From assembly GCF_000007185.1 (NCBI RefSeq), contig NC_003551.1:540001-572000 (forward strand): a stretch of DNA of 32,000 nt, read 5' to 3'. Both the position numbers and the translations under genes were made by a program. The DNA is from Methanopyrus kandleri AV19 (GTDB lineage Archaea > JAADCQ01 > Methanopyri > Methanopyrales > Methanopyraceae). Below, piece by piece: positions 3,208 through 26,125 of this stretch (position 1 is the stretch's first letter; each line of letters begins with the position of its first letter). The notes beneath the pieces were generated by a model. That model saw nothing but the letters and a program-made list of their open reading frames with translations. It ran no database searches and was not told the origin of the DNA.

Positions 3208-3480
3208 TCGATTGACCCCCACTCCCAGTACCGAACGCGCTTAAAATCCTTTCGATTACGGACGCACAATCTTGGCGTTGGGCTTAAATTTGTGCGAACG
3301 TTCATTTTCCCGCCAGAACTGCTGGGACGGCCAGAACCATGGTGGTCGAGTATGGTAAGGGGGCAAATAATTTAACTGACCCGGTCGAGTTCATGGTCAG
3401 ATCAACGCTCGCACAAATGAGAATGATTGGAAAGAGAGGGGGCGGGAAGGGAGGCTCCCACCGGTCGGGGGTCAAGGCCC

Positions 3481-4767
3481 ATGAGCCGCGGCACCAAGGC
3501 CGGCATCTACCGAGATGTACTCGTTATTGAAGTTTTCCCCGGGGCGGTCCCCGACACGGGGACGCTCCGAGCCCTGAACGAGAGGGAGCGTAGGTTACTC
3601 CTAGCGGCAGCTGGATACGATGTCACTGAGTTCTGGGCTAGAAGTTTCATAGGACTGCTCTTCGACCATCCTACGCCCCTCGTTAGGGCATCCGAGAGAC
3701 ACGAGAAACTGTTACCGGAGGCGACGGTGGCGGCAGTCCGCGAGTTGTGCGATCGTATCGAACCCGAGAAGTTACGGAAGATCCGTAGCCGTGTGGCCTC
3801 CGGGGAGACCCCGAGGGAGGCCGTGCGTCGTGTCCTCGGATCCAAGATGGCCGGAGCCGTTTCCAGACTACTCGGTCGTGTTATGGGTTACGTACAGTCC
3901 GACCCGCTCTCCGTGGCCATCACCCTCCAGGTGTTAGGCACCATGATCGCAGCGGACAAACGCCTAGAGGACGTGTCGACGGTTTTGGTCGTCGTCCCGG
4001 GCCTAGAGCACGTGCACATCGACGTATATCGACTGGCACGAAGGGTTTACTCTAACCTCGTGAGGGCGATGAAGTCCCTCAGACGCTACCTCAACCCTCG
4101 AGTTAGGGTGCGGGTGTACGTAGCCACGGGAGGTAAACTGGAACATCCAGCGGGAGATTCCCCCGAGGAGGAGCTGATCGAGGCGTACGAGGAGCTCTCA
4201 AGGAGGCCCACCGTGAGACGCTTCTTCCCGGAGCGTGGCCACTTCACCGAGGTACCTTGGGACCGAGCACTCGCTGAGTTTTTTGTGCGAGTTATCCGAA
4301 GGGAGCTCCACCGTAGGTCTCTGAAGGTAGTTCGGGCTGCGAAGCGGGAGGGTGCTTCGGGTAGAGAGCTGTCTGAAGTGTACGGCAGGGAGTACGGTAA
4401 GTGGTTGAGCAGGTGGTTCAAACGCGGTCGTCGATGGCTGAACTTTCACAGACCTAGTCCGGCACTCTCCGATATCTCCTGCTGCTTCGTAGCGTCAGAG
4501 GCGGGAGTAGAAGGATACCATGAGGAGTTCTTGATAAAGGTACTCCAGAAGGTGTTGAGAGAAGTCGTCGAACGCAGGGTGACAGGACGACGGCTTGTGC
4601 GAAAAATAGTCAGGAAGATCGCCAGGGTCCTAAAGGAGGACTTCAGGGTCGAAGGGAAGATACGCGAAGGGATTCTCCACATGGCGAGGCTACTCGGTGG
4701 CAGACGCAAAGCCGCGTTAGGTGGCAAGACACTGCTCGAAGCGTTCGGGGCACCTCCACCGAGTTGA
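3481..4767 (+). CDS. large Arg-rich orphan protein, no recognisable domain
   Basis: 1.3 kb uninterrupted ORF. ATG 3481 follows a purine-rich ggaagggagg run, whereas the track start 3427 is TTG. No Walker, nuclease or recombinase motif seen. Confidence 0.55.
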   Translation: MSRGTKAGIYRDVLVIEVFPGAVPDTGTLRALNERERRLLLAAAGYDVTEFWARSFIGLLFDHPTPLVRASERHEKLLPEATVAAVRELCDRIEPEKLRKIRSRVASGETPREAVRRVLGSKMAGAVSRLLGRVMGYVQSDPLSVAITLQVLGTMIAADKRLEDVSTVLVVVPGLEHVHIDVYRLARRVYSNLVRAMKSLRRYLNPRVRVRVYVATGGKLEHPAGDSPEEELIEAYEELSRRPTVRRFFPERGHFTEVPWDRALAEFFVRVIRRELHRRSLKVVRAAKREGASGRELSEVYGREYGKWLSRWFKRGRRWLNFHRPSPALSDISCCFVASEAGVEGYHEEFLIKVLQKVLREVVERRVTGRRLVRKIVRKIARVLKEDFRVEGKIREGILHMARLLGGRRKAALGGKTLLEAFGAPPPS

Positions 4768-5063
4768 GGGTATCTTCGGACGGTAACCCCACGATCGTGA
4801 GCGGCGGAGGTGCCGACAATTGTTACGATTTCAATAACATTTGAATATCGCAACGAAAATTCTTTTACTTGCAGTTAATTCAGAGCCCGATATACAGTTA
4901 TTCATCGAGCTAATTCCTCTACTTTCATTGAGTGAACGAGGGTAATAGTAGACGGTTATGGCGCGCGATGGCAGATAAGTAACCAAATAACGTCCTTTTT
5001 TATTTGGACTTCTATTCGCCAACCTTCCACAGCCGAGAGTGTGAAACTGCGGGCGCGAGGAAG

Positions 5064-5954
5064 ATGGACGTGAAGACGTTAGTCGGAGAGTACTACGCCT
5101 CACTTCCCAGCGGCGTGTTACGAGAGTTCGTGGAAGACCCGAGCTCCCGCGAGTGGGCGTACACCTTCCTAAAGGGACGGGATATCGTATTCACCCGAAA
5201 GCGGAGGTTGGACGAGGTCTCAGGGTTCTTAGAGCTGTATCACTCGACTGGGAAGTTCAAGAACCCGAAATCGTGGGAGGGACTCCTCGGCTGGGATCTG
5301 GTGATCGACGTGGACGCGGAGCTTCCGGAGGAGCCCGAGGCGTTCCTCAAATCGCTGGGGAGGCTACTCAAGGATGTAGTGATAGCATGCGACGAGTTAC
5401 GTCGGGCGTTAGGGTTCCCACGACCGGACGTGGTTAATTTCTCTGGATCCAAGGGGTTTCACGTGAGGTACTTCGACAGCACCGTGCGACGGTGGCTGAG
5501 ATGGGACTTACACGAGCGTCGAGGTATAAAGCCGGGCGAGATCATCCAGCGGGTGGGTCGTGGAGTCGTATGGTTGGCACGTGAGGGTTTCGTGGCTGGG
5601 GACAGAGTGCGTGCACTCCGCGAGGGGCTCTTGGATGACTCGATGTACGATCTCAAGAGACTGATCCGATGCGTCGGATCGATGAACGTCAAGTCGCTAC
5701 TCCCCGCAGTGCCGGTGTGGTCGCGAGAGGGGGGTCGGTGGGTGGACTTTCGGGACGAGGTCCTAGGAATGAACGATTTGGAGCTGGGATGCCTGGTCGC
5801 CCACCGCACGTTGACCTGGCCCGGCCGTGGGGGATTGGGCGTAGTACTTTCCCGCGTACTCGACTTAGACACGGATGCAGATCCGGAGGATCCAAGCGAC
5901 TTCGTCGAGGTATGGGGGAACGTGATGTCGGTGCTGGGGGAGCTTAAGCCGTGA
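5064..5954 (+). CDS. priS: archaeo-eukaryotic primase catalytic (small) subunit-like protein
   Basis: AEP motif I is LVIDVDAE, motif II is FSGSKGFHV, and motif III region is YDLKRLIRCVGSMNVKS. N-terminal REWAYTF...R resembles the PriS REFAF block. ATG 5064 follows gcgaggaag. The stop overlaps the cofC start. Confidence 0.65.
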   Translation: MDVKTLVGEYYASLPSGVLREFVEDPSSREWAYTFLKGRDIVFTRKRRLDEVSGFLELYHSTGKFKNPKSWEGLLGWDLVIDVDAELPEEPEAFLKSLGRLLKDVVIACDELRRALGFPRPDVVNFSGSKGFHVRYFDSTVRRWLRWDLHERRGIKPGEIIQRVGRGVVWLAREGFVAGDRVRALREGLLDDSMYDLKRLIRCVGSMNVKSLLPAVPVWSREGGRWVDFRDEVLGMNDLELGCLVAHRTLTWPGRGGLGVVLSRVLDLDTDADPEDPSDFVEVWGNVMSVLGELKP

Positions 5955-11976: not shown

Positions 11977-12042
11977 GAGCTTCCAGTAGTCGTCAAGCTT
12001 CGGATCGAAGCTAGTAACAACTCAGGTAAGAGCTGCGGTGAA

Positions 12043-12624
12043 GTGTCGGTTAAAACATCACTGAAACTCGAGCAAACAACCACTGAGTCTAGCACAGAAA
12101 CATCCTACGAACAGGAGACATCATCGACAACTGGAGGTACTACAACTGGAGGTGCTGAGACATCCTCAGGATCGTCGGTGGAGAGTCACACAGAAGCTAG
12201 TGAATCGAGTGGAGAGAACAACGGTGGAGAAGCTGAGACTGAGACGGGTACGGTGACGACGACCCCAGCCCAGATCAAGGACCTCAAAGCCGTTGTGGAG
12301 AAGGTGAAGCCTGGACAGGTAATAATTGATGTCAGCGGTCGGGTTGAAGTGAAGCACTGTCGGTCTGAGATAATACTAGTGGTGATCTACAACGGTAAGG
12401 TGATCAAACGAATCACCGTCAAACTATCGAATGGTACTTTCAAGGAGAAGATTGAAGTCACGGGGATTCCATTGGTTGATCCAGGGCAGCTAACCGTTAA
12501 ACTCGAGGTGAAGGTATCCACTAAAATCGTGGCTTCCAGGGACATTAAAGTGGACATTCCGAGACCAGTGGGAGTAACAGTGGTGCCTGCGAAGGGTAAG
12601 AAATACACGGTTATCGTATATTAG
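12043..12624 (+). CDS. surface-protein fragment 4: S/T/E/G-rich linker plus beta-rich domain
   Basis: Same frame as fragment 3, with only TGA 11974 between them. The low-complexity stretch TTTESSTETSYEQETSSTTGGTTTGGAETSSGSS is visibly lower in GC. Confidence 0.55.
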   Translation: MSVKTSLKLEQTTTESSTETSYEQETSSTTGGTTTGGAETSSGSSVESHTEASESSGENNGGEAETETGTVTTTPAQIKDLKAVVEKVKPGQVIIDVSGRVEVKHCRSEIILVVIYNGKVIKRITVKLSNGTFKEKIEVTGIPLVDPGQLTVKLEVKVSTKIVASRDIKVDIPRPVGVTVVPAKGKKYTVIVY

Positions 12625-12633
12625 GACGGATCA

Positions 12634-12933
12634 GTGTACGTAGTTGATGAGCAAAATAGAGTTGTGGACAGTGTCGTACTGTCGAAGAAGGTGAAGCGGA
12701 TCGTAGAGGTACGCGGTGACCAGCTGGTAATCGAGACTCAGACCGGAGAACGGTGCATCCTCAAGGTCGACGAGAGAGGTGAACTTAGGCCTGTCAAATT
12801 CTTGGTGATCAAGTCGGGGAGCTACGAAGTATCAGTGGCCGGTAGTGCTAAGGCTAAGGCCAAGGCCCGCGCCACGCCGCTGATCCTGATACTACCGATC
12901 CTGCTCAGGCTAGTCAGGAGGAGCACGGCCTGA
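12634..12933 (+). CDS. surface-protein fragment 5 with C-terminal membrane anchor
   Basis: Same frame as fragment 4, separated only by TAG 12622-12624 and three sense codons. It ends AKAKAKARATPLILILPILLRLVRRSTA (hydrophobic helix plus basic tail). Confidence 0.55.
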   Translation: MYVVDEQNRVVDSVVLSKKVKRIVEVRGDQLVIETQTGERCILKVDERGELRPVKFLVIKSGSYEVSVAGSAKAKAKARATPLILILPILLRLVRRSTA

Positions 12934-20467: not shown

Positions 20468-21198
20468 TCCTGAAGGTGGAGGACCTGCACAAGAGCTACG
20501 ACGACCTGAAGGTGCTGGACGGCATCACGTTCGAGGTCTCGGAAGGTGAGTTCTTCGCGATCGTAGGCCCCAGCGGGTGCGGTAAGACGACGCTCCTCAA
20601 GATAATCGCCGGACTGGAGGACTACGACGCGGGCAGGGTCCTGGTGGACGGCGAGGAGGTTCGGGAGCCCGGACCCGACCGCGCCCTGGTCTTCCAAGAG
20701 TATGCTATCTTCCCGTGGAAGACCGTGCTGGAGAACGTCATGTTCGCCCCGCTGATGCAGGGCAAGGACCCGGAGGAGGCCGAGCGCATCGCCCGGGAGT
20801 GCCTCAAGGTCGTCCCGGGACTCGAGGGGTTCGAGGACGCCTACCCCAAGCAACTCTCCGGCGGTATGAAGCAGCGCGTCGCCATCGCCAGGGCGCTGGC
20901 GGCCGAGCCCAGGATCCTGCTCATGGACGAGCCGTTCGCCGCCGTGGACGCCCAGACGCGCAACAAGATGCAGGAGGAGCTCCTGAAAATATGGGAGAGA
21001 ACGGGGCAGACCATCCTCCTGGTGACGCATAACGTCGAGGAGGCGGTGTTCCTGGCCGACCGCGTGATGGTACTCTCACCCAGGCCCGCCGAGATAGTCG
21101 ATATAGTCGAGATCGACCTACCACGACCAAGGGACAGGACCGACCCCGAGTTCGTCGAGCTGCGGGCCCGAATACTCGACATGATCGGAAGCCGATGA
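20458..21198 (+). CDS. ABC transporter ATP-binding protein (SsuB/TauB-like)
   Basis: Walker A is GPSGCGKTT, signature is LSGGMKQRVAIARAL, and Walker B is LLMDEPF. ATG 20458 overlaps the permease stop. Confidence 0.9.
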   Translation: MAVILKVEDLHKSYDDLKVLDGITFEVSEGEFFAIVGPSGCGKTTLLKIIAGLEDYDAGRVLVDGEEVREPGPDRALVFQEYAIFPWKTVLENVMFAPLMQGKDPEEAERIARECLKVVPGLEGFEDAYPKQLSGGMKQRVAIARALAAEPRILLMDEPFAAVDAQTRNKMQEELLKIWERTGQTILLVTHNVEEAVFLADRVMVLSPRPAEIVDIVEIDLPRPRDRTDPEFVELRARILDMIGSR

Positions 21199-21220
21199 TG
21201 ACAAGAGGGTTAGCCGAACC

Positions 21221-22033
21221 GTGACGAGCGTTTGCCGGTCCGAGGCCCTCAGGTTCTGGAAACGACTGGGCTGTACCTCGCTCACGTTCAACGCCCCGAT
21301 GTCGGGCCACACGGGACCCGAGCTGGCGCCCGAGCTGGAGCGCCACGGCGTAGGGATGGTGATACTCGGCGGTTACCCCGGCGACGACGCCACTTACCGG
21401 GCCTCGAAGCTGGTGGCACGCCGACGGGACGAGTTCGCGGTGCCGCCCGACCGCTTACCGGAGGAGCTGTCACGCGTCGACGTGGAGATACCGGTGGCCG
21501 TGAACGTGAGGTTCGCGGACCCCCGTGAGGCCGGGGAACTCTCCGGTGAACTGGCGGACCTCGTGGACGTCGTCGAGATCAACGCCCACTGTCGACAACC
21601 CGAGATCGTCCGAGCCGGCGCGGGCGAGGCGCTGCTCGAGGACCGGACACGGCTGATCGAGATCGTCGAAGCCGTGGCGGAGCACGACGTGTACGTCTCC
21701 GTGAAGCTCCGCGGACCGCACCCCGCGTTCGAAGACGCGCTGGAAGCCCTGCGGGACTCGTCGGTGGACGTCCTACACGTGGACGCCATGAAACCTGGCG
21801 AACCGACGTACGAGCTGGAGTACGTCCGGGCGGCGGCTCGGGTCGGGGTTCCGGTTATCGGGAACAACTCGGTCCGCACGCCCGAGGACGTCGACCGCAT
21901 GTTCGAGGCCGGTGCATCCGCGGTGTCCGTGGGTCGACCGATCCTCGAGGGAGACTGGGACGTCCTCGAACGGCTCGTCCGGTACACCGTACTGAGGAAA
22001 AGTAGCGAAGGGGCAGGACTTGCCCGCACGTGA
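21221..22033 (+). CDS. TIM-barrel flavoprotein-like enzyme, dihydrouridine synthase (NifR3/Dus)-like
   Basis: VVEINAHCRQPE, VSVKLRG, VLHVDAM, PVIGNNSVRTPEDV and AVSVGRP match the Dus-like barrel pattern. The start is uncertain (ATG 21299 is possible). Confidence 0.55.
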   Translation: MTSVCRSEALRFWKRLGCTSLTFNAPMSGHTGPELAPELERHGVGMVILGGYPGDDATYRASKLVARRRDEFAVPPDRLPEELSRVDVEIPVAVNVRFADPREAGELSGELADLVDVVEINAHCRQPEIVRAGAGEALLEDRTRLIEIVEAVAEHDVYVSVKLRGPHPAFEDALEALRDSSVDVLHVDAMKPGEPTYELEYVRAAARVGVPVIGNNSVRTPEDVDRMFEAGASAVSVGRPILEGDWDVLERLVRYTVLRKSSEGAGLART

Positions 22034-22039
22034 GGACCG

Positions 22040-22300
22040 GCCGTTGGCCCCGGCTCATAAGAGCCACCGATTCAGGGCACTGTCCGACCGGTCTCAGGGT
22101 GGCGGTGCACCCGATTACCCCCTACCTCTCCCGAGCTCCCCATGGGAGCTGCGGTTCATCGGTTCGGGGTTATGGGTGGCTTGTGATTCGAGGGCAAGAC
22201 AGTGGTACAGTTCGAACCCGTTAAGTACTCCAGCTCCGGTTCGGGAGGGTCATCGGTGGCCCTCGTTAGCAGGTTATAGGCCCTCACGATGTCAGCATTC
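22040..22300 (-). ncRNA. candidate omega-RNA (TnpB guide RNA scaffold) overlapping the tnpB 3' end
   Basis: GC content jumps at the tnpB 3' end. Stacked GC-rich stems are AGCTCCC/GGGAGCT, GCCACC/GGTGGC, CGAACC/GGTTCG, GAGGG/CCCTC and GGCTC/GAGCC. The position matches where omega-RNAs map. Boundaries are guessed. Confidence 0.3.
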
Positions 22301-23580
22301 ATAGTTTTTCCACACTTTGAGCAGATCACTAGCCCTCCGTTCCGTTTGCATTTACTTCTGCACATCGGACATGTTACCGAAGTGTACGCAGGACTAGCCT
22401 CAATGACCTCTATACCGTACTCTTCACATTTCCGTTTGATCTCCCTTATAATTCGCTTGTAGGCCCAGTATGCTAGCTCCCCATGCAGCTTTTGGCGTAA
22501 GCCTTTAAGATCCTCAATAACTAATAGCGTTACCTCACGACTGAGCAAGATCTGAACTAGTTTGCTCACCAAATGCCGGATCGCGTCCATGATCGCCCGG
22601 TGAGCTTTAACGTAATACTGTTTCAGACGGTGAGAGAAATTAGCCCCATTTTTGTTGAGTCGCCGCTGTTCTTTCGGGGCCTTGATTTTTCTCCAGTATG
22701 ACCACCGAGACCATGCGTCACCCCATCGTACCAGAACCGGTTTCTTCCCATCTGAGAAATAAACAGCGGCGAATATGCGGCGGCCGATGTCAACAGCTGC
22801 GGCGTTCTCACAGTTATTTCCAGTCCGAGGTATAGGTCGAACCCGACCATTTGGAGTTAGCCGAGAGACGAGCCAGCTTTCGCCCTTATTCACCTTCATA
22901 TTCAAAGTAAGGTAATGAGCGTTATCTGCCCAACTATAGACGATCTCGCTACGCCCGAAGAACTCCTTGCCGTCGTCTCCGTTTAGGATAATCTTATCCG
23001 CTCTTTTGGGTTCTTTCACTCGGTTCGGGTGCCAGGGAAACCATCCCACGAACTCGAGCCTGACACCACGGCCGCGACCACGCTTAAATCCGACGTTGGG
23101 GAGGTTGTCGACGACATCGCCAAGTCCTAAGATTTCAATAACGCCACGATGTTCCAATGGATCGTACTCGAACCGTCGGATCTGGGAAGCTAGGAATACG
23201 AATCGCGGTTCCCTACCGAGCGGACCTTTCCAGTATCGTGGAGGTTGACAGATCGTTCTACGTTTGTTCGACTTTACCTCTTTGATTTGTTTGAAATAAG
23301 ATCGCCAAGCTTCAGTGTTCTTTTCCCCAATTGCGACTACTGTTTGAGTACCTAAAATTGGCCCATATTCTCTATAAATTCTCCTGAATGTAAGTTCTGA
23401 CCTAGAAACGGCGACAGCATCCAACTTGCCTTTGAAGAAAAATCGACGGCGAAGGTAGTTTAACTCGTTATACACGGCGGTACATCTGTCACTGAGGAAA
23501 ATCAGGTCTCTGCGGTACCCCTCAGGGCCGACAATTTTGAGGGTGATCGAGCGGTATCTATAGTCGGACCTAAGTGGCAC
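22156..23580 (-). CDS. tnpB: TnpB (IS605 OrfB-type RNA-guided RuvC endonuclease)
   Basis: RuvC-I is AAVDIGRRIFAAV, RuvC-II is LLVIEDLKGL, the zinc ribbon is CPMCRSKC...CSKCG, and RuvC-III is NADIVRAYN. The start is either GTG 23580 or, per the ORF track, 23634. Confidence 0.85.
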   Translation of the reverse strand: MPLRSDYRYRSITLKIVGPEGYRRDLIFLSDRCTAVYNELNYLRRRFFFKGKLDAVAVSRSELTFRRIYREYGPILGTQTVVAIGEKNTEAWRSYFKQIKEVKSNKRRTICQPPRYWKGPLGREPRFVFLASQIRRFEYDPLEHRGVIEILGLGDVVDNLPNVGFKRGRGRGVRLEFVGWFPWHPNRVKEPKRADKIILNGDDGKEFFGRSEIVYSWADNAHYLTLNMKVNKGESWLVSRLTPNGRVRPIPRTGNNCENAAAVDIGRRIFAAVYFSDGKKPVLVRWGDAWSRWSYWRKIKAPKEQRRLNKNGANFSHRLKQYYVKAHRAIMDAIRHLVSKLVQILLSREVTLLVIEDLKGLRQKLHGELAYWAYKRIIREIKRKCEEYGIEVIEASPAYTSVTCPMCRSKCKRNGGLVICSKCGKTMNADIVRAYNLLTRATDDPPEPELEYLTGSNCTTVLPSNHKPPITPNR

Positions 23581-23636
23581 GGATAGTACCCCTTGACGTG
23601 AGCAGGTTCTTGGTCGCAGCGTCTGAACCAACAATC

Positions 23637-23645
23637 AATATAAAT
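23637..23645 (+). promoter_or_regulatory. TATA box for tRNA-Leu
   Basis: aatataaat is centred about 30 nt upstream of tRNA position 1. Confidence 0.55.
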
Positions 23646-23670
23646 CTCCCTATGATGGCCTGAAATGGGC

Positions 23671-23760
23671 GCGGGGGCGCCCGAGCCTGGTCGAAGGGGG
23701 CGGACTTAAGATCCGCTGGCCGTAGGGCCGTCCCGGGTTCAAATCCCGGCCCCCGCACCA
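23671..23760 (+). tRNA. tRNA-Leu (anticodon UAA), class II, genomically encoded CCA, C at position 8
   Basis: Acceptor GCGGGGG/CCCCCGC, discriminator A plus CCA. Anticodon arm GCGGA-CUUAAGA-UCCGC. Long variable arm, T-loop GTTCAAATC, A14 and GG in the D-loop. Confidence 0.95.
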
Positions 23761-23766
23761 AGCGAG

Positions 23767-23791
23767 AATCGTTATGAGAATAATAACGATT
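23767..23791. promoter_or_regulatory. tRNA-Leu 3' trailer hairpin (AATCGTTAT-N7-ATAACGATT)
   Basis: 9-bp perfect AT-rich stem starting 7 nt after CCA. It shares the 12-mer GAATCGTTATGA with the tRNA-Ser trailer. Confidence 0.55.
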
Positions 23792-23844: not shown

Positions 23845-25068
23845 ATGTCGAGCTCGCGGGCGGTTTCCCAGGGCCCCTCTGGGGGGGGCACCCGAGGAGC
23901 GTCGGGGGAACGCGGTACCGTGGTGGGACGCGGTCGTTCCTTGGTATCCGTCCTGCGCACCCTGCTGAGGATCCCCGCGGTGCGACGATCTCTGGTCGTA
24001 CTGTCGTCAATCCTCCTGACGTCCACGGTCATCTTTCACTTCCTGGAGGGATGGCCGCTGCTGACCTGCCTGTACTTCACCGCGGCCACGATAACGACCG
24101 TGGGGTACGGCGACGTCGTCCCCACCACGGAGGCGGGTCGCCTGCTTTCCGTCATCGTCATGTTCTCCGGGATCGGCGTGGCCTCGTACGCCTTGGGAGA
24201 CATCATCCAGCTCGTCTTCCGAGGGGAGCTCTCCTTGGCGATCAAGGAGGACGTCCTCCGGAAGAGGATAAAGGAGGTCGAGAACCACATCATCGTGTGC
24301 GGGTTCGGCAGGACGGGTAGCCGCGTCGCCAGGTTACTCTCGGAACGGTACAAGTTCGACGTCGTGGTGGTGGATAAAGACGAGGAGGCCTACGAGCGGG
24401 CCGTATACCAAGGGTTTCCCGCGGTTCTGGGCGACGCGACGAGAGAAGACACGCTGCAGGAGGCCAACGTCGAGAGCGCCCGCGGTATGGTGGTGGCGAC
24501 GGGTGACGACCGCACCAACGTCTTCGTGACGCTGCTCGCGAAGAACTTCAGGCGGGACCTCCACGTCGTCGCGGTAGCCAACAGCCGGGAAGGTGCCAAG
24601 ATGATGGAGCGTGCCGGGGCCGACGAGGTGCTCTTCCTGTACGACTGCGCGTCCCGGCACATAGTACGGGCTGCCCTCTCCCCTACGATGTTCCGGGTGA
24701 CGGTGCGGCACTCCGTGGACGAGATCTCGGACGTCATGTGGATCATAATCGGCAACGGCGGTGTGGTGCAGTGCGTGGAGTACTACACCCCGCCCTTGAA
24801 ATCCCCGATCCGTAGGGACGTCGTGATAAGCTCCATGGACGAGGTGATGAGGTTCGTCAAGAGCCTGGAGAAGTACCCCGAAAGGAAGCGAACTCTGGAG
24901 GACCTCTACAGGGTCTCCGAGAACGTCCACACTTACTACGTGATCGTCCACAACGAGGAGGAGCGCGAGCGCATCCTCCGTGAGCTCGACCGACGCGGCT
25001 ACCTCGTCGGCGTCGACCTCACCATCGACGAGATCCTCCAAGAGATCGAGCGGCTCCGAGGCGAGTGA
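23845..25068 (+). CDS. MthK-like potassium channel (2-TM pore plus RCK/TrkA-N domain)
   Basis: The selectivity filter TTVGYGDV lies between two TM helices. The Rossmann motif IIVCGFGRTGSRVARLL follows. ATG 23845 is preceded by ggaggtg. Confidence 0.85.
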   Translation: MSSSRAVSQGPSGGGTRGASGERGTVVGRGRSLVSVLRTLLRIPAVRRSLVVLSSILLTSTVIFHFLEGWPLLTCLYFTAATITTVGYGDVVPTTEAGRLLSVIVMFSGIGVASYALGDIIQLVFRGELSLAIKEDVLRKRIKEVENHIIVCGFGRTGSRVARLLSERYKFDVVVVDKDEEAYERAVYQGFPAVLGDATREDTLQEANVESARGMVVATGDDRTNVFVTLLAKNFRRDLHVVAVANSREGAKMMERAGADEVLFLYDCASRHIVRAALSPTMFRVTVRHSVDEISDVMWIIIGNGGVVQCVEYYTPPLKSPIRRDVVISSMDEVMRFVKSLEKYPERKRTLEDLYRVSENVHTYYVIVHNEEERERILRELDRRGYLVGVDLTIDEILQEIERLRGE

Positions 25069-25271
25069 CTCCCGCGTCCACTACCAGGCGGCCGGCACCC
25101 CGTTACCACCGGAGTTCGCCGGTCAGGCACTCATCGTCACGGTACCACCCTCCTCGGACCCCTTTTCCTTGTAATCGCCTCCGATCGACGCTCAAGCCAC
25201 CAATCCTCTCCTGCTTCTGGAATGTACTGAAAGTCCGGAATACTTTTATTGTCTCGCACGATTACAAAAGA

Positions 25272-25817
25272 ATGGTCGCGAACCCGTCCGGGGTGGCGAG
25301 AGTGTCCTGGCAGGGCGCCCCGTTACCGGCCGATCCGGTGGAACGCATTCGGTGCTTGCGTATCCTTCGAGAAACGTACCGGCGTAGGGCCAAGCCGAAG
25401 CCGCGGAAGACGTACCGGAAGATCGCGGGGAGGACGTACGGCCCGTACTACGTCGCGTACTTCGGGCGGACGAGGCGGCACCGCAGGGTCCGGCTGATCT
25501 ACCTGGGGAAGTCGAACCCGAGCGTGGATTTCGTCGAGTGGCTGGCCGGACAGTCGAGGGAGCGCGTGCTCGAGCTCGCCCGGCTCGCCGTCCGGCACCT
25601 CCGTACAGCGCTCGAGACGTTGTCCCACGAGGCTCGCGATGCCGGGGATGTACGTCGACTGGTCGCCCGAATCCTGGCACTCGCCTTCGACCTCGAGCCC
25701 GCGCGCTCGACCGGGCTCCGGGGTCCGCTCGAGCGCGCCCCGAGGTTCGTGAGGACCGTACTCGGACCCTGGGAGGCCTGGTTCGCGGAGAACGTCCTAC
25801 GTAAACTCCTCTCCTAG
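25272..25817 (+). CDS. uncharacterised protein, YGPYY-IYLG family (paralog of 2479-3207)
   Basis: ATG 25272 lies behind a TATA-like aatacttttatt. The track start 25065 is an unlikely Pro/Ser/Arg-rich extension. Contains TYRKIAGRTYGPYYVAYF...RLIYLGKSNPSVDFVEWL. Confidence 0.6.
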   Translation: MVANPSGVARVSWQGAPLPADPVERIRCLRILRETYRRRAKPKPRKTYRKIAGRTYGPYYVAYFGRTRRHRRVRLIYLGKSNPSVDFVEWLAGQSRERVLELARLAVRHLRTALETLSHEARDAGDVRRLVARILALAFDLEPARSTGLRGPLERAPRFVRTVLGPWEAWFAENVLRKLLS

Positions 25818-26034: not shown

Positions 26035-26125
26035 GCCGGGGCGGCCGAGCCCGGTCCAAGGCGCGGGACTTGAGATCCCGTGGCCCGTATGGGCCGCCCG
26101 GGTTCAAATCCCGGCCCCGGCGCCA
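26035..26125 (+). tRNA. tRNA-Ser (anticodon UGA), class II, encoded CCA, C at position 8
   Basis: Acceptor GCCGGGG/CCCCGGC, discriminator G plus CCA. Anticodon arm CGGGA-CUUGAGA-UCCCG. Variable arm GGCCC-GTAT-GGGCC. T-arm CCGGG-TTCAAAT-CCCGG. Confidence 0.95.

Follow-up and report, generated by a model that had tools for sequence, protein, structure and literature searches.

The chromosome of the hyperthermophilic archaeon Methanopyrus kandleri AV19 carries, beside a gene for tRNA-Leu(UAA), a tnpB gene located in an island of low G+C; this gene, the RNA predicted at its 3' end and the history of the site that they occupy are the subject of the present analysis. The window, i.e. the whole stretch of DNA that was analysed, is 32,000 nt long (NC_003551.1, positions 540,001 to 572,000), and positions are given on this scale unless genome coordinates are named. 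The 1.64-kb interval between a Dus-like gene and tRNA-Leu(UAA) contains a single long open reading frame (ORF), which lies on the minus strand (22156-23634, 492 aa) and includes the deposited tnpB gene (Table 1). The GTG start lies 90 nt from the tRNA gene, and a TTG start giving the longest ORF would reduce this distance to 36 nt, in agreement with the 40-90 nt given in an earlier note on this DNA (hereafter the original prediction), which had also correctly placed the gene in a hyperthermophile.

The gene product is, by family profile, catalytic triad, zinc ribbon and modelled fold, an intact TnpB. It matches the NCBIfam profile guided_TnpB (NF040570) with 109.8 bits against a cut-off of 100, residues 41-458 covering profile positions 12-389 of 389, and the Pfam family Cas12f1-like_TNB (PF07282) with 58.8 bits against a cut-off of 26.3 (residues 392-455 of the 492-aa ORF); the score obtained with the OrfB_IS605 profile, 28.6, is slightly below the cut-off of 30.5. 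The Asp-Glu-Asp (D-E-D) triad of the three RuvC motifs and the four cysteines of the CxxC...CxxC ribbon, which had been described as intact, are indeed all in place, and alignment to the TnpB profile leaves the catalytic residues undisplaced; the two aspartates are invariant throughout alignment A1, which comprises 19 sequences. In the E356 column of this alignment the canonical IEDL of M. kandleri is replaced by GYP or GDL in its nearest homologues (P0002, P0005 and others), which either make use of a relocated glutamate or are inactive. P0002, despite its non-canonical E356 column, adjoins a transposase gene. The AlphaFold2 model of the 474-aa protein has a predicted local distance difference test score (pLDDT) of 70.7; its top Foldseek matches in the PDB are all Cas12f or TnpB structures, among them AsCas12f (8j3r, E = 1.7e-16), ISFba1 TnpB (7.7e-15) and ISDra2 TnpB (1.6e-12; the ISDra2-type structures are 8h1j and 8exa), with template modelling (TM) scores of just 0.37-0.49. 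As a gene call M. kandleri tnpB is ordinary and already annotated, the NCBI name of the protein being RNA-guided endonuclease InsQ/TnpB; what is new here is an orphan protein, a host living at an extreme temperature and the natural history of the locus.

Table 1. Features of the tnpB locus of M. kandleri AV19 (positions in the 32,000-nt window).
Feature	Position	Strand	Remarks
Dus-like gene	21221..22033	+	convergent with tnpB; 270 aa in AV19, 260 aa in L178 and L180
Inserted island	22034..23670		from the stop of the Dus-like gene to the 5' end of tRNA-Leu; same interval 30-90 nt in deeper Methanopyri
Right-end terminal block	22004..22125	-	kept in L178 (L178 4822-4945), with 36 consecutive identical nt at 22004-22039
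Candidate omega-RNA scaffold	22054..22273	-	final 118 nt of the ORF and 102 nt downstream; GC-rich, predicted to fold
tnpB gene	22156..23580	-	474-aa deposited product (P0001); GTG start at 23580; TGA stop at 22158-22156
RuvC-III aspartate D430 (MNADIV)	22291..22293	-	invariant in A1; aligned to NAD of Cas12f and TnpB chains
Zinc ribbon C404-x2-C407 ... C420-x2-C423	22312..22371	-	Cas12f1-like_TNB match and alignment A1
RuvC-II glutamate E356 (VIEDLKG)	22513..22515	-	aligned to mEDLTG of Cas12f 9nzq
RuvC-I aspartate D264 (AAVDIG)	22789..22791	-	invariant column in A1; matches vDlG of TnpB 9nzp
Putative left end	23581..23631	-	~51 nt; small terminal hairpin TTGGTTCAG..CTGCGACCAA; boundary inferred, uncertain
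AT-rich TATA-like box	23637..23645		AATATAAAT on +, ATTTATATT on -; between tnpB and tRNA
tRNA-Leu(UAA)	23671..23760	+	divergent from tnpB; Rfam tRNA 48.2 bits; AV19 genome 563671-563760

The tnpB gene has a G+C content of 49.5% and the island between 22054 and 23631 one of 50.6%, against 61.1% in the remainder of the window, and this is the lowest-G+C 1.58-kb stretch of the 32 kb (mean 0.605, standard deviation 0.032). Similarly, the G+C at third codon positions (GC3) is 0.53 in tnpB, compared with 0.82-0.89 in the six nearest genes, whose overall G+C ranges from 61 to 68%. The exception is the 3' part of the island, where 270 nt (22004-22273) reach 63% G+C; the low-GC island of the original prediction thus holds for the gene and fails for this 3' stretch. 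By its composition the island is foreign. It is also an insertion relative to deeper Methanopyri, since in these organisms the Dus-like gene directly abuts the tRNA: the vacant arrangement is found at four loci, with a spacer of 30 nt in L006, ~80-90 nt in L007, 38 nt in L008 and a similar one in L087, and the Dus-like proteins encoded there are identical to that of AV19 at 74% (L006 and L087), 71% (L007) and 62% (L008) of positions. Both observations agree with the horizontal acquisition that had been proposed. A scan of metagenomes for a closer vacant site found only an L006-like locus.

Queries for a Y1 transposase (TnpA) and a serine resolvase, taken from the locus of the nearest relative of TnpB, gave no phmmer match in any window ORF of at least 60 aa, and neither a second tnpB nor a second copy of either end is present in the 32 kb. 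Accordingly, the description of an intact TnpB that is solo, with no TnpA or serine recombinase in the island, is valid for the whole window. Short-read contigs of the same strain, 100% identical to this DNA, are continuous from within the tRNA to a point 10 kb into the unique flank beyond the element; since a repeated element of 1.6 kb would break such contigs, the element is single-copy in AV19, and not one of many identical copies with TnpA partners. The element does not qualify as an autonomous IS605, given the single copy and the lack of an adjacent Y1 TnpA. All these contigs (L001-L005) stop at one base, 23746, within the T-arm of tRNA-Leu. Su et al. (PMC3695527) list three genes for tRNA-Leu that do not differ in their 3' half, so that the shared end is due to a repeat in the assembly and has no biological junction behind it.

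In a set of 1.84 billion representative proteins, an E value of 1e-30 or lower was reached solely by TnpB itself and by P0002, its nearest full-length relative, which is 30-35% identical to it. P0002 is encoded in a canonical IS605 element, in which tnpB overlaps a Y1 TnpA gene and the left and right ends have matching hairpins; the lineage of this TnpB is therefore carried by transposons, and M. kandleri has a derivative reduced to tnpB. At the same locus (L167, 3552-6445) a serine resolvase gene and a small ORF are located 390 nt downstream of tnpB, which therefore has two kinds of recombinase beside it. A viral source was also sought, and the best match in the viral collection was 28% identical.

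The site between the Dus-like gene and tRNA-Leu(UAA) is, or has been, occupied in sister Methanopyrus lineages. A metagenome contig of 965 nt (L170), whose tRNA-Leu(UAA) differs from that of AV19 by 1 nt, carries tnpB at 181 nt from the tRNA and in the same divergent orientation; the gene is interrupted by one frameshift, its two frames are 54% and 44% identical to the AV19 protein, and it shares the lineage-specific insertion GLGDVVD..GFKRG..GWFPW. A word-indexed search with the frame-corrected fragment returned the fragment alone. In Methanopyrus sp. L178, the flanks of which are 91% identical to those of AV19 (synonymous divergence, dS, 0.23-0.39), a wrecked tnpB pseudogene is found at the same place, with stops, frameshifts and loss of residues 194-402; its remnants are 57-65% identical to AV19. 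Finally, Methanopyrus sp. L180 (flanks 88% identical) is without tnpB; it was considered as a clean vacant site and discarded as such, because it keeps a 347-nt AT-rich remnant that marks it as a deletion derivative. The locus shows all stages from intact to lost, and the element has in some cases diverged far less than its hosts and in others more. An argument for independent acquisitions, built on amelioration and G+C content, was judged indecisive.

Occupation of one site in several lineages could reflect the target preference of an ordinary insertion sequence (IS), moved in trans by a Y1 TnpA whose gene is located at another genomic site, on a virus or on a plasmid. Such an element would be in keeping with the nearest relative, which belongs to a TnpA-tnpB element, and with the foreign composition, which suggests an outside reservoir; it is nevertheless improbable, since AV19 has a single copy, close relatives are absent both from the viral collection (best match 28%) and from the 1.84 billion representative proteins, and a target motif of 4-5 nt cannot account for the repeated use of one intergenic site.

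In a second strain of M. kandleri (GCA_053992195.1, L086) the element occupies the same position, and its TnpB agrees with that of AV19 at 469 of the 474 residues. The two strains differ in tnpB by 1 synonymous and 5 nonsynonymous changes, corresponding to a proportion of synonymous differences (pS) of 0.003 and to a ratio of nonsynonymous to synonymous proportions (pN/pS) of 1.52. In 21 neighbouring genes, where ~322 synonymous and ~120 nonsynonymous changes were counted in total, pS ranges from 0.020 to 0.162 (~0.077 when pooled) and pN/pS from 0 to 0.45. At the pooled rate ~26 synonymous changes would be expected in tnpB, against the one that is seen, and at the lowest rate of any neighbour the probability of this outcome is still ~0.009; likewise, the 5:1 ratio of nonsynonymous to synonymous changes departs from the ~120:322 of the neighbours (P ~0.007, binomial). 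Between these strains there is no sign of purifying selection on the protein. The tract of low divergence, 21953-23780, comprises the element and at most 150 nt per side. The element thus coalesces far more recently than the surrounding chromosome, which indicates that it moved or was converted between the strains after their split.

On balance, the M. kandleri element is probably a single-copy, non-autonomous, tnpB-only (IS1341-type) member of the IS200/IS605 group, ~1.6 kb long, that acts as a selfish cassette of the homing type. In the proposed mechanism TnpB would bind an RNA made from 22273 to ~22034 on the minus strand, and the 3' tail of this RNA, copied from the DNA just past the right end, would guide cleavage of the same site where it lacks the element; recombination with an occupied copy would then restore or spread the element after the cut. 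In the absence of TnpA, and always at one locus, the element would persist by cleavage and recombination, and the cassette would cycle through invasion, decay and loss across Methanopyrus lineages. A role of TnpB in homing is established for bacterial IS605 elements (10.1101/2023.03.14.532601; PMC10690162); for M. kandleri, we infer that homing or recombination underlies both the persistence at one site and the movement between strains. A bolder proposal, which we hold to be doubtful, is that the Dus-like/tRNA-Leu(UAA) site constitutes a natural homing site, into which a TnpA-less cassette is repeatedly reintroduced, then swept, decayed and lost in the manner of homing-endonuclease genes.

The same data bear on a different history, in which the element is a stranded relic: the transposase would have been lost long ago, and an inactive tnpB, inherited vertically, would now be at an earlier stage of neutral decay than in the sister lineages. 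The original prediction had suggested a stranded copy, and this is supported in part: the pN/pS of ~1.5 between strains, the progressive decay and loss in sister lineages, the lack of TnpA in the window and the single copy are all as a relic would have them. Conversely, an ORF of 474 codons with all its catalytic residues and zinc ligands is unlikely to outlast a long neutral drift, the L178 copy is already wrecked in a host only ~9% diverged, and the tnpB pS, at least 7 times below that of any neighbour, is not predicted by vertical neutral inheritance. A relic is therefore considered rather unlikely, and the homing-type cassette is retained as the preferred reading.

TnpB elements encode an omega-RNA at their 3' end, and a GC-rich stretch in a hyperthermophile has the look of a structured RNA. 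The 3' region of the M. kandleri gene, GC-rich and strongly folding, is the predicted omega-RNA region. Its G+C content is 58-65%, compared with 49% in the remaining ORF, and the final 39 codons of tnpB have a GC3 of 0.69, compared with 0.52 for the remaining codons. The 227-nt RNA corresponding to 22054-22280 on the minus strand has a predicted folding energy of -88 kcal/mol (z = -2.7), which was equalled by none of 200 shuffled sequences, and a 311-nt version of the region gives z = -3.8. The candidate RNA would be closed by a long-range helix, 22273-22252 / 22071-22050 (inverted repeat I1), and near its end a tetraloop hairpin, GGCTC-TTAT-GAGCC, can be formed. Rfam has no omega-RNA family that matches here; its matches were confined to the tRNA and a C/D box below threshold. 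In AV19 RNA-seq data, Gomes-Filho et al. 2015 (PMC4615843) described a transcript that overlaps the 3' end of tnpB in sense.

The ends of the element were initially set at 22054 (right) and 23631 (left) by aligning the unoccupied site of L006/L087 (TTGATTG/CCG..., the slash marking the junction) to both junctions. A right end fixed at 22054 was then dropped, since a block shared with L178 and present in carriers alone extends to 22004. In this right-end block 104 of 118 ungapped positions match L178 (88%), whereas the L178 tnpB remnants reach just 57-65% identity; it is not present at the tnpB-less loci L180, L006, L007 and L008. The final 10 codons of the AV19 Dus-like ORF (22004-22033) fall within the block, next to which AV19 has a deletion of ~42 nt; this deletion fused the 3' end of the ORF to the block, which accounts for a product longer in AV19 than in its relatives. 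The right end is thus ambiguous, and with it the guide and the transposon-associated motif (TAM). Possible causes of the conservation of the block in L178 are an RNA with a function of its own, use as a recombination arm and a recent conversion. One strand of the homing-site proposal, and just as doubtful as the rest of it, is that the right-end RNA block may have gained its own use in a lineage where the nuclease is dead.

The block also bears on a possible domestication, which had been suggested originally: TnpB or its omega-RNA would have taken on a host function, e.g. the control of the tRNA-Leu and Dus-like genes, or a role as a regulatory RNA. The occupation of the site in several Methanopyrus lineages, the 88% identity of the block in L178 despite a destroyed tnpB and an AT-rich box between tnpB and tRNA that could serve both would be compatible with it, as would the functional roles that Gomes-Filho et al. 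2015 (PMC4615843) propose for such 3' RNAs. However, purifying selection on the protein is lacking, its pN/pS of 1.5 contrasting with the 0-0.45 of the 21 neighbours, and tnpB is frameshifted in L170, and decayed in L178 and deleted in L180, two close relatives in which the tRNA and the Dus-like gene are retained; moreover, deeper Methanopyri do without it, and the known domesticated homologues, named TldR, are nuclease-dead (PMC10705468), whereas D-E-D is kept here. Domestication is thus very improbable.

As to the other end of the presumed homing cassette, alignment with vacant sites suggests that it probably lies near 23631, where the motif caatcaatWtaa starts; this motif (23632-23643) is common to the unoccupied L006 and L087 loci, at a nearly equal distance from the tRNA. 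The view that the tRNA promoter leaves little room for a left end is not borne out, as the ~51 nt between the TATA-like box and the start codon can accommodate an end with a small terminal hairpin. Small hairpins occur at both inferred ends of the AV19 element; they are dissimilar and the boundaries are uncertain. The AT-rich box may, judging from its sequence, act in both directions, and on the strand opposite to the tRNA it is well positioned for a tnpB transcription start near 23615. The published 5' leader of tRNA-Leu(UAA), 19 nt long (ATGATGGCCTGAAATGGGC), starts at 23652, 7 nt past the box ATATAAAT (23638-23645). A gap of 7 nt misfits the usual spacing of ~26 nt, from which the box would predict a start near 23667; given the published leader start, the assignment of the box as tRNA promoter is therefore unsettled. 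The leader contains a C-box-like ATGATG and a D-box-like CTGA.

Several points weigh against a homing-type cassette. Plain recombination of imported DNA would give patterns similar to those ascribed to the nuclease. The low divergence of tnpB comes from a single pair of genomes and could arise without a nuclease, either by plain recombination of a short import or from a mosaic assembly. The L178 remnants, with 57-65% identity, are more diverged than the neutral sites of the host (1-pS 0.69-0.80), a comparison affected by alignment noise at such identities and perhaps by a faster evolution of AT-rich DNA where the genome is GC-rich. Furthermore, the right end can be drawn in two ways, at 22054 from the similarity to L006 or at 22004 or beyond from the block common to L178; the left-end hairpin is no better than shuffled sequences (z = +0.5); and Su et al. 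2013 (PMC3695527) tabulate no small RNA at the tnpB locus.

The proposed cassette can be compared with several known systems. Archaeal IS1341-type elements with sense-overlapping transcripts (sotRNAs) are described for Halobacterium salinarum in PMC4615843, where M. kandleri AV19 is included among the organisms with such a transcript; shared features are a lone tnpB and a structured RNA, predicted in M. kandleri, that extends from the 3' end of the ORF to tens of nt past the stop, with a tetraloop hairpin near its end. In H. salinarum there are 10 copies and TnpA accompanies half of them, while M. kandleri has one copy, no TnpA and only ~30% identity to any other full-length protein.

A further known system is the TnpB-omega-RNA system of ISDra2/IS605 (Karvelis 2021, Altae-Tran 2021). 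Its TnpB has in common with the M. kandleri protein the RuvC D-E-D triad, the zinc ribbon, the fold and a guide RNA at the right end, the latter being predicted here; the differences are a length of 408 aa for ISDra2 TnpB and 474 aa for that of M. kandleri, an identity of ~15% in structural alignment, and, in M. kandleri, a lineage-specific insertion of ~40 aa in the N-terminal half and the lack of a partner TnpA. The role proposed for ISDra2/IS605 in homing, i.e. cleavage of the vacant site followed by recombination (10.1101/2023.03.14.532601; PMC10690162), is the one suggested for M. kandleri. SisTnpB1 from Sulfolobus islandicus (PMC10640517; PMC11043419) is also archaeal, derived from a thermophile and associated with a 3' omega-RNA, as predicted in M. 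kandleri; it is active from 37 to 85 °C with an optimum at 75 °C. The M. kandleri protein is longer, not closely related to SisTnpB1, and belongs to a host that grows near 100 °C.

TldR proteins (PMC10705468) resemble M. kandleri TnpB in being TnpB homologues fixed at one host locus without a transposase. However, TldRs have lost the catalytic residues and are conserved together with host partner genes, whereas in M. kandleri the D-E-D triad is present, pN/pS is ~1.5 and sister copies decay; a domesticated protein of the TldR type is ruled out by the intact triad, the lack of constraint and the loss in relatives. Cas12f proteins give the best structural matches, and the PADLOC models of Cas12f and Cas12u match the C-terminal RuvC half of the protein. 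Differently from a Cas12f system, the window has no CRISPR array and the gene no cas1/cas2 neighbours, and the NCBIfam Cas12f2 score is 53.9 bits against a cut-off of 450. A Cas12f or type V CRISPR effector is thus ruled out, as the window is without an array and the neighbours are housekeeping genes.

If protein and RNA are active, M. kandleri would provide an RNA-guided DNA nuclease whose host has a growth temperature of ~98-110 °C, well above the 85 °C of SisTnpB1, and hence a useful, very stable tool. Closely related genomes offer a natural series of the locus (intact, frameshifted, decayed, deleted, never occupied), with a divergence that does not follow the host; therefore the proposed homing role of TnpB can be tested in nature, in archaea, without the confounding presence of a transposase. 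Should the homing-site proposal be true, it would represent field evidence, from an archaeon living at ~100 °C, that TnpB and omega-RNA alone maintain and spread an element.

Apart from the Dus-like gene, the neighbours of tnpB in the window include genes for an ABC (ATP-binding cassette) transporter and a TrkA-type channel. The gene that follows the latter (25065-25817, plus strand) encodes a DUF1678 protein (140.5 bits), which belongs to a family without known function. The second tRNA gene of the window, Ser-TGA, is located at 26035-26125; in their list of tRNA genes, Su et al. 2013 (PMC3695527) place it at 566035-566125 and Leu-TAA at 563671-563760. Two other patches of low G+C (0.49) are found at 4501-5000 and 12001-12500; the ORFs located there (3427-4767, 5004-5954, 12043-12624 and 12634-12933) have no Pfam match and probably represent M. 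kandleri orphan genes. The segment 23781-24010, from tRNA-Leu to the TrkA-type channel and including the annotated N-terminus of the latter, is hypervariable between the two M. kandleri strains, with dozens of substitutions and several indels in 230 nt. Finally, the published C/D box small RNA (sRNA) 47 lies at 21189-21250 on the plus strand (561189 in the genome; Su et al. 2013, PMC3695527, give a read coverage of 205,900), between the gene for the ABC ATPase and the Dus-like ORF, whose annotated start (21221) it overlaps; its Rfam matches all stay below threshold (sR3, 31.4 bits against a gathering score of 41).

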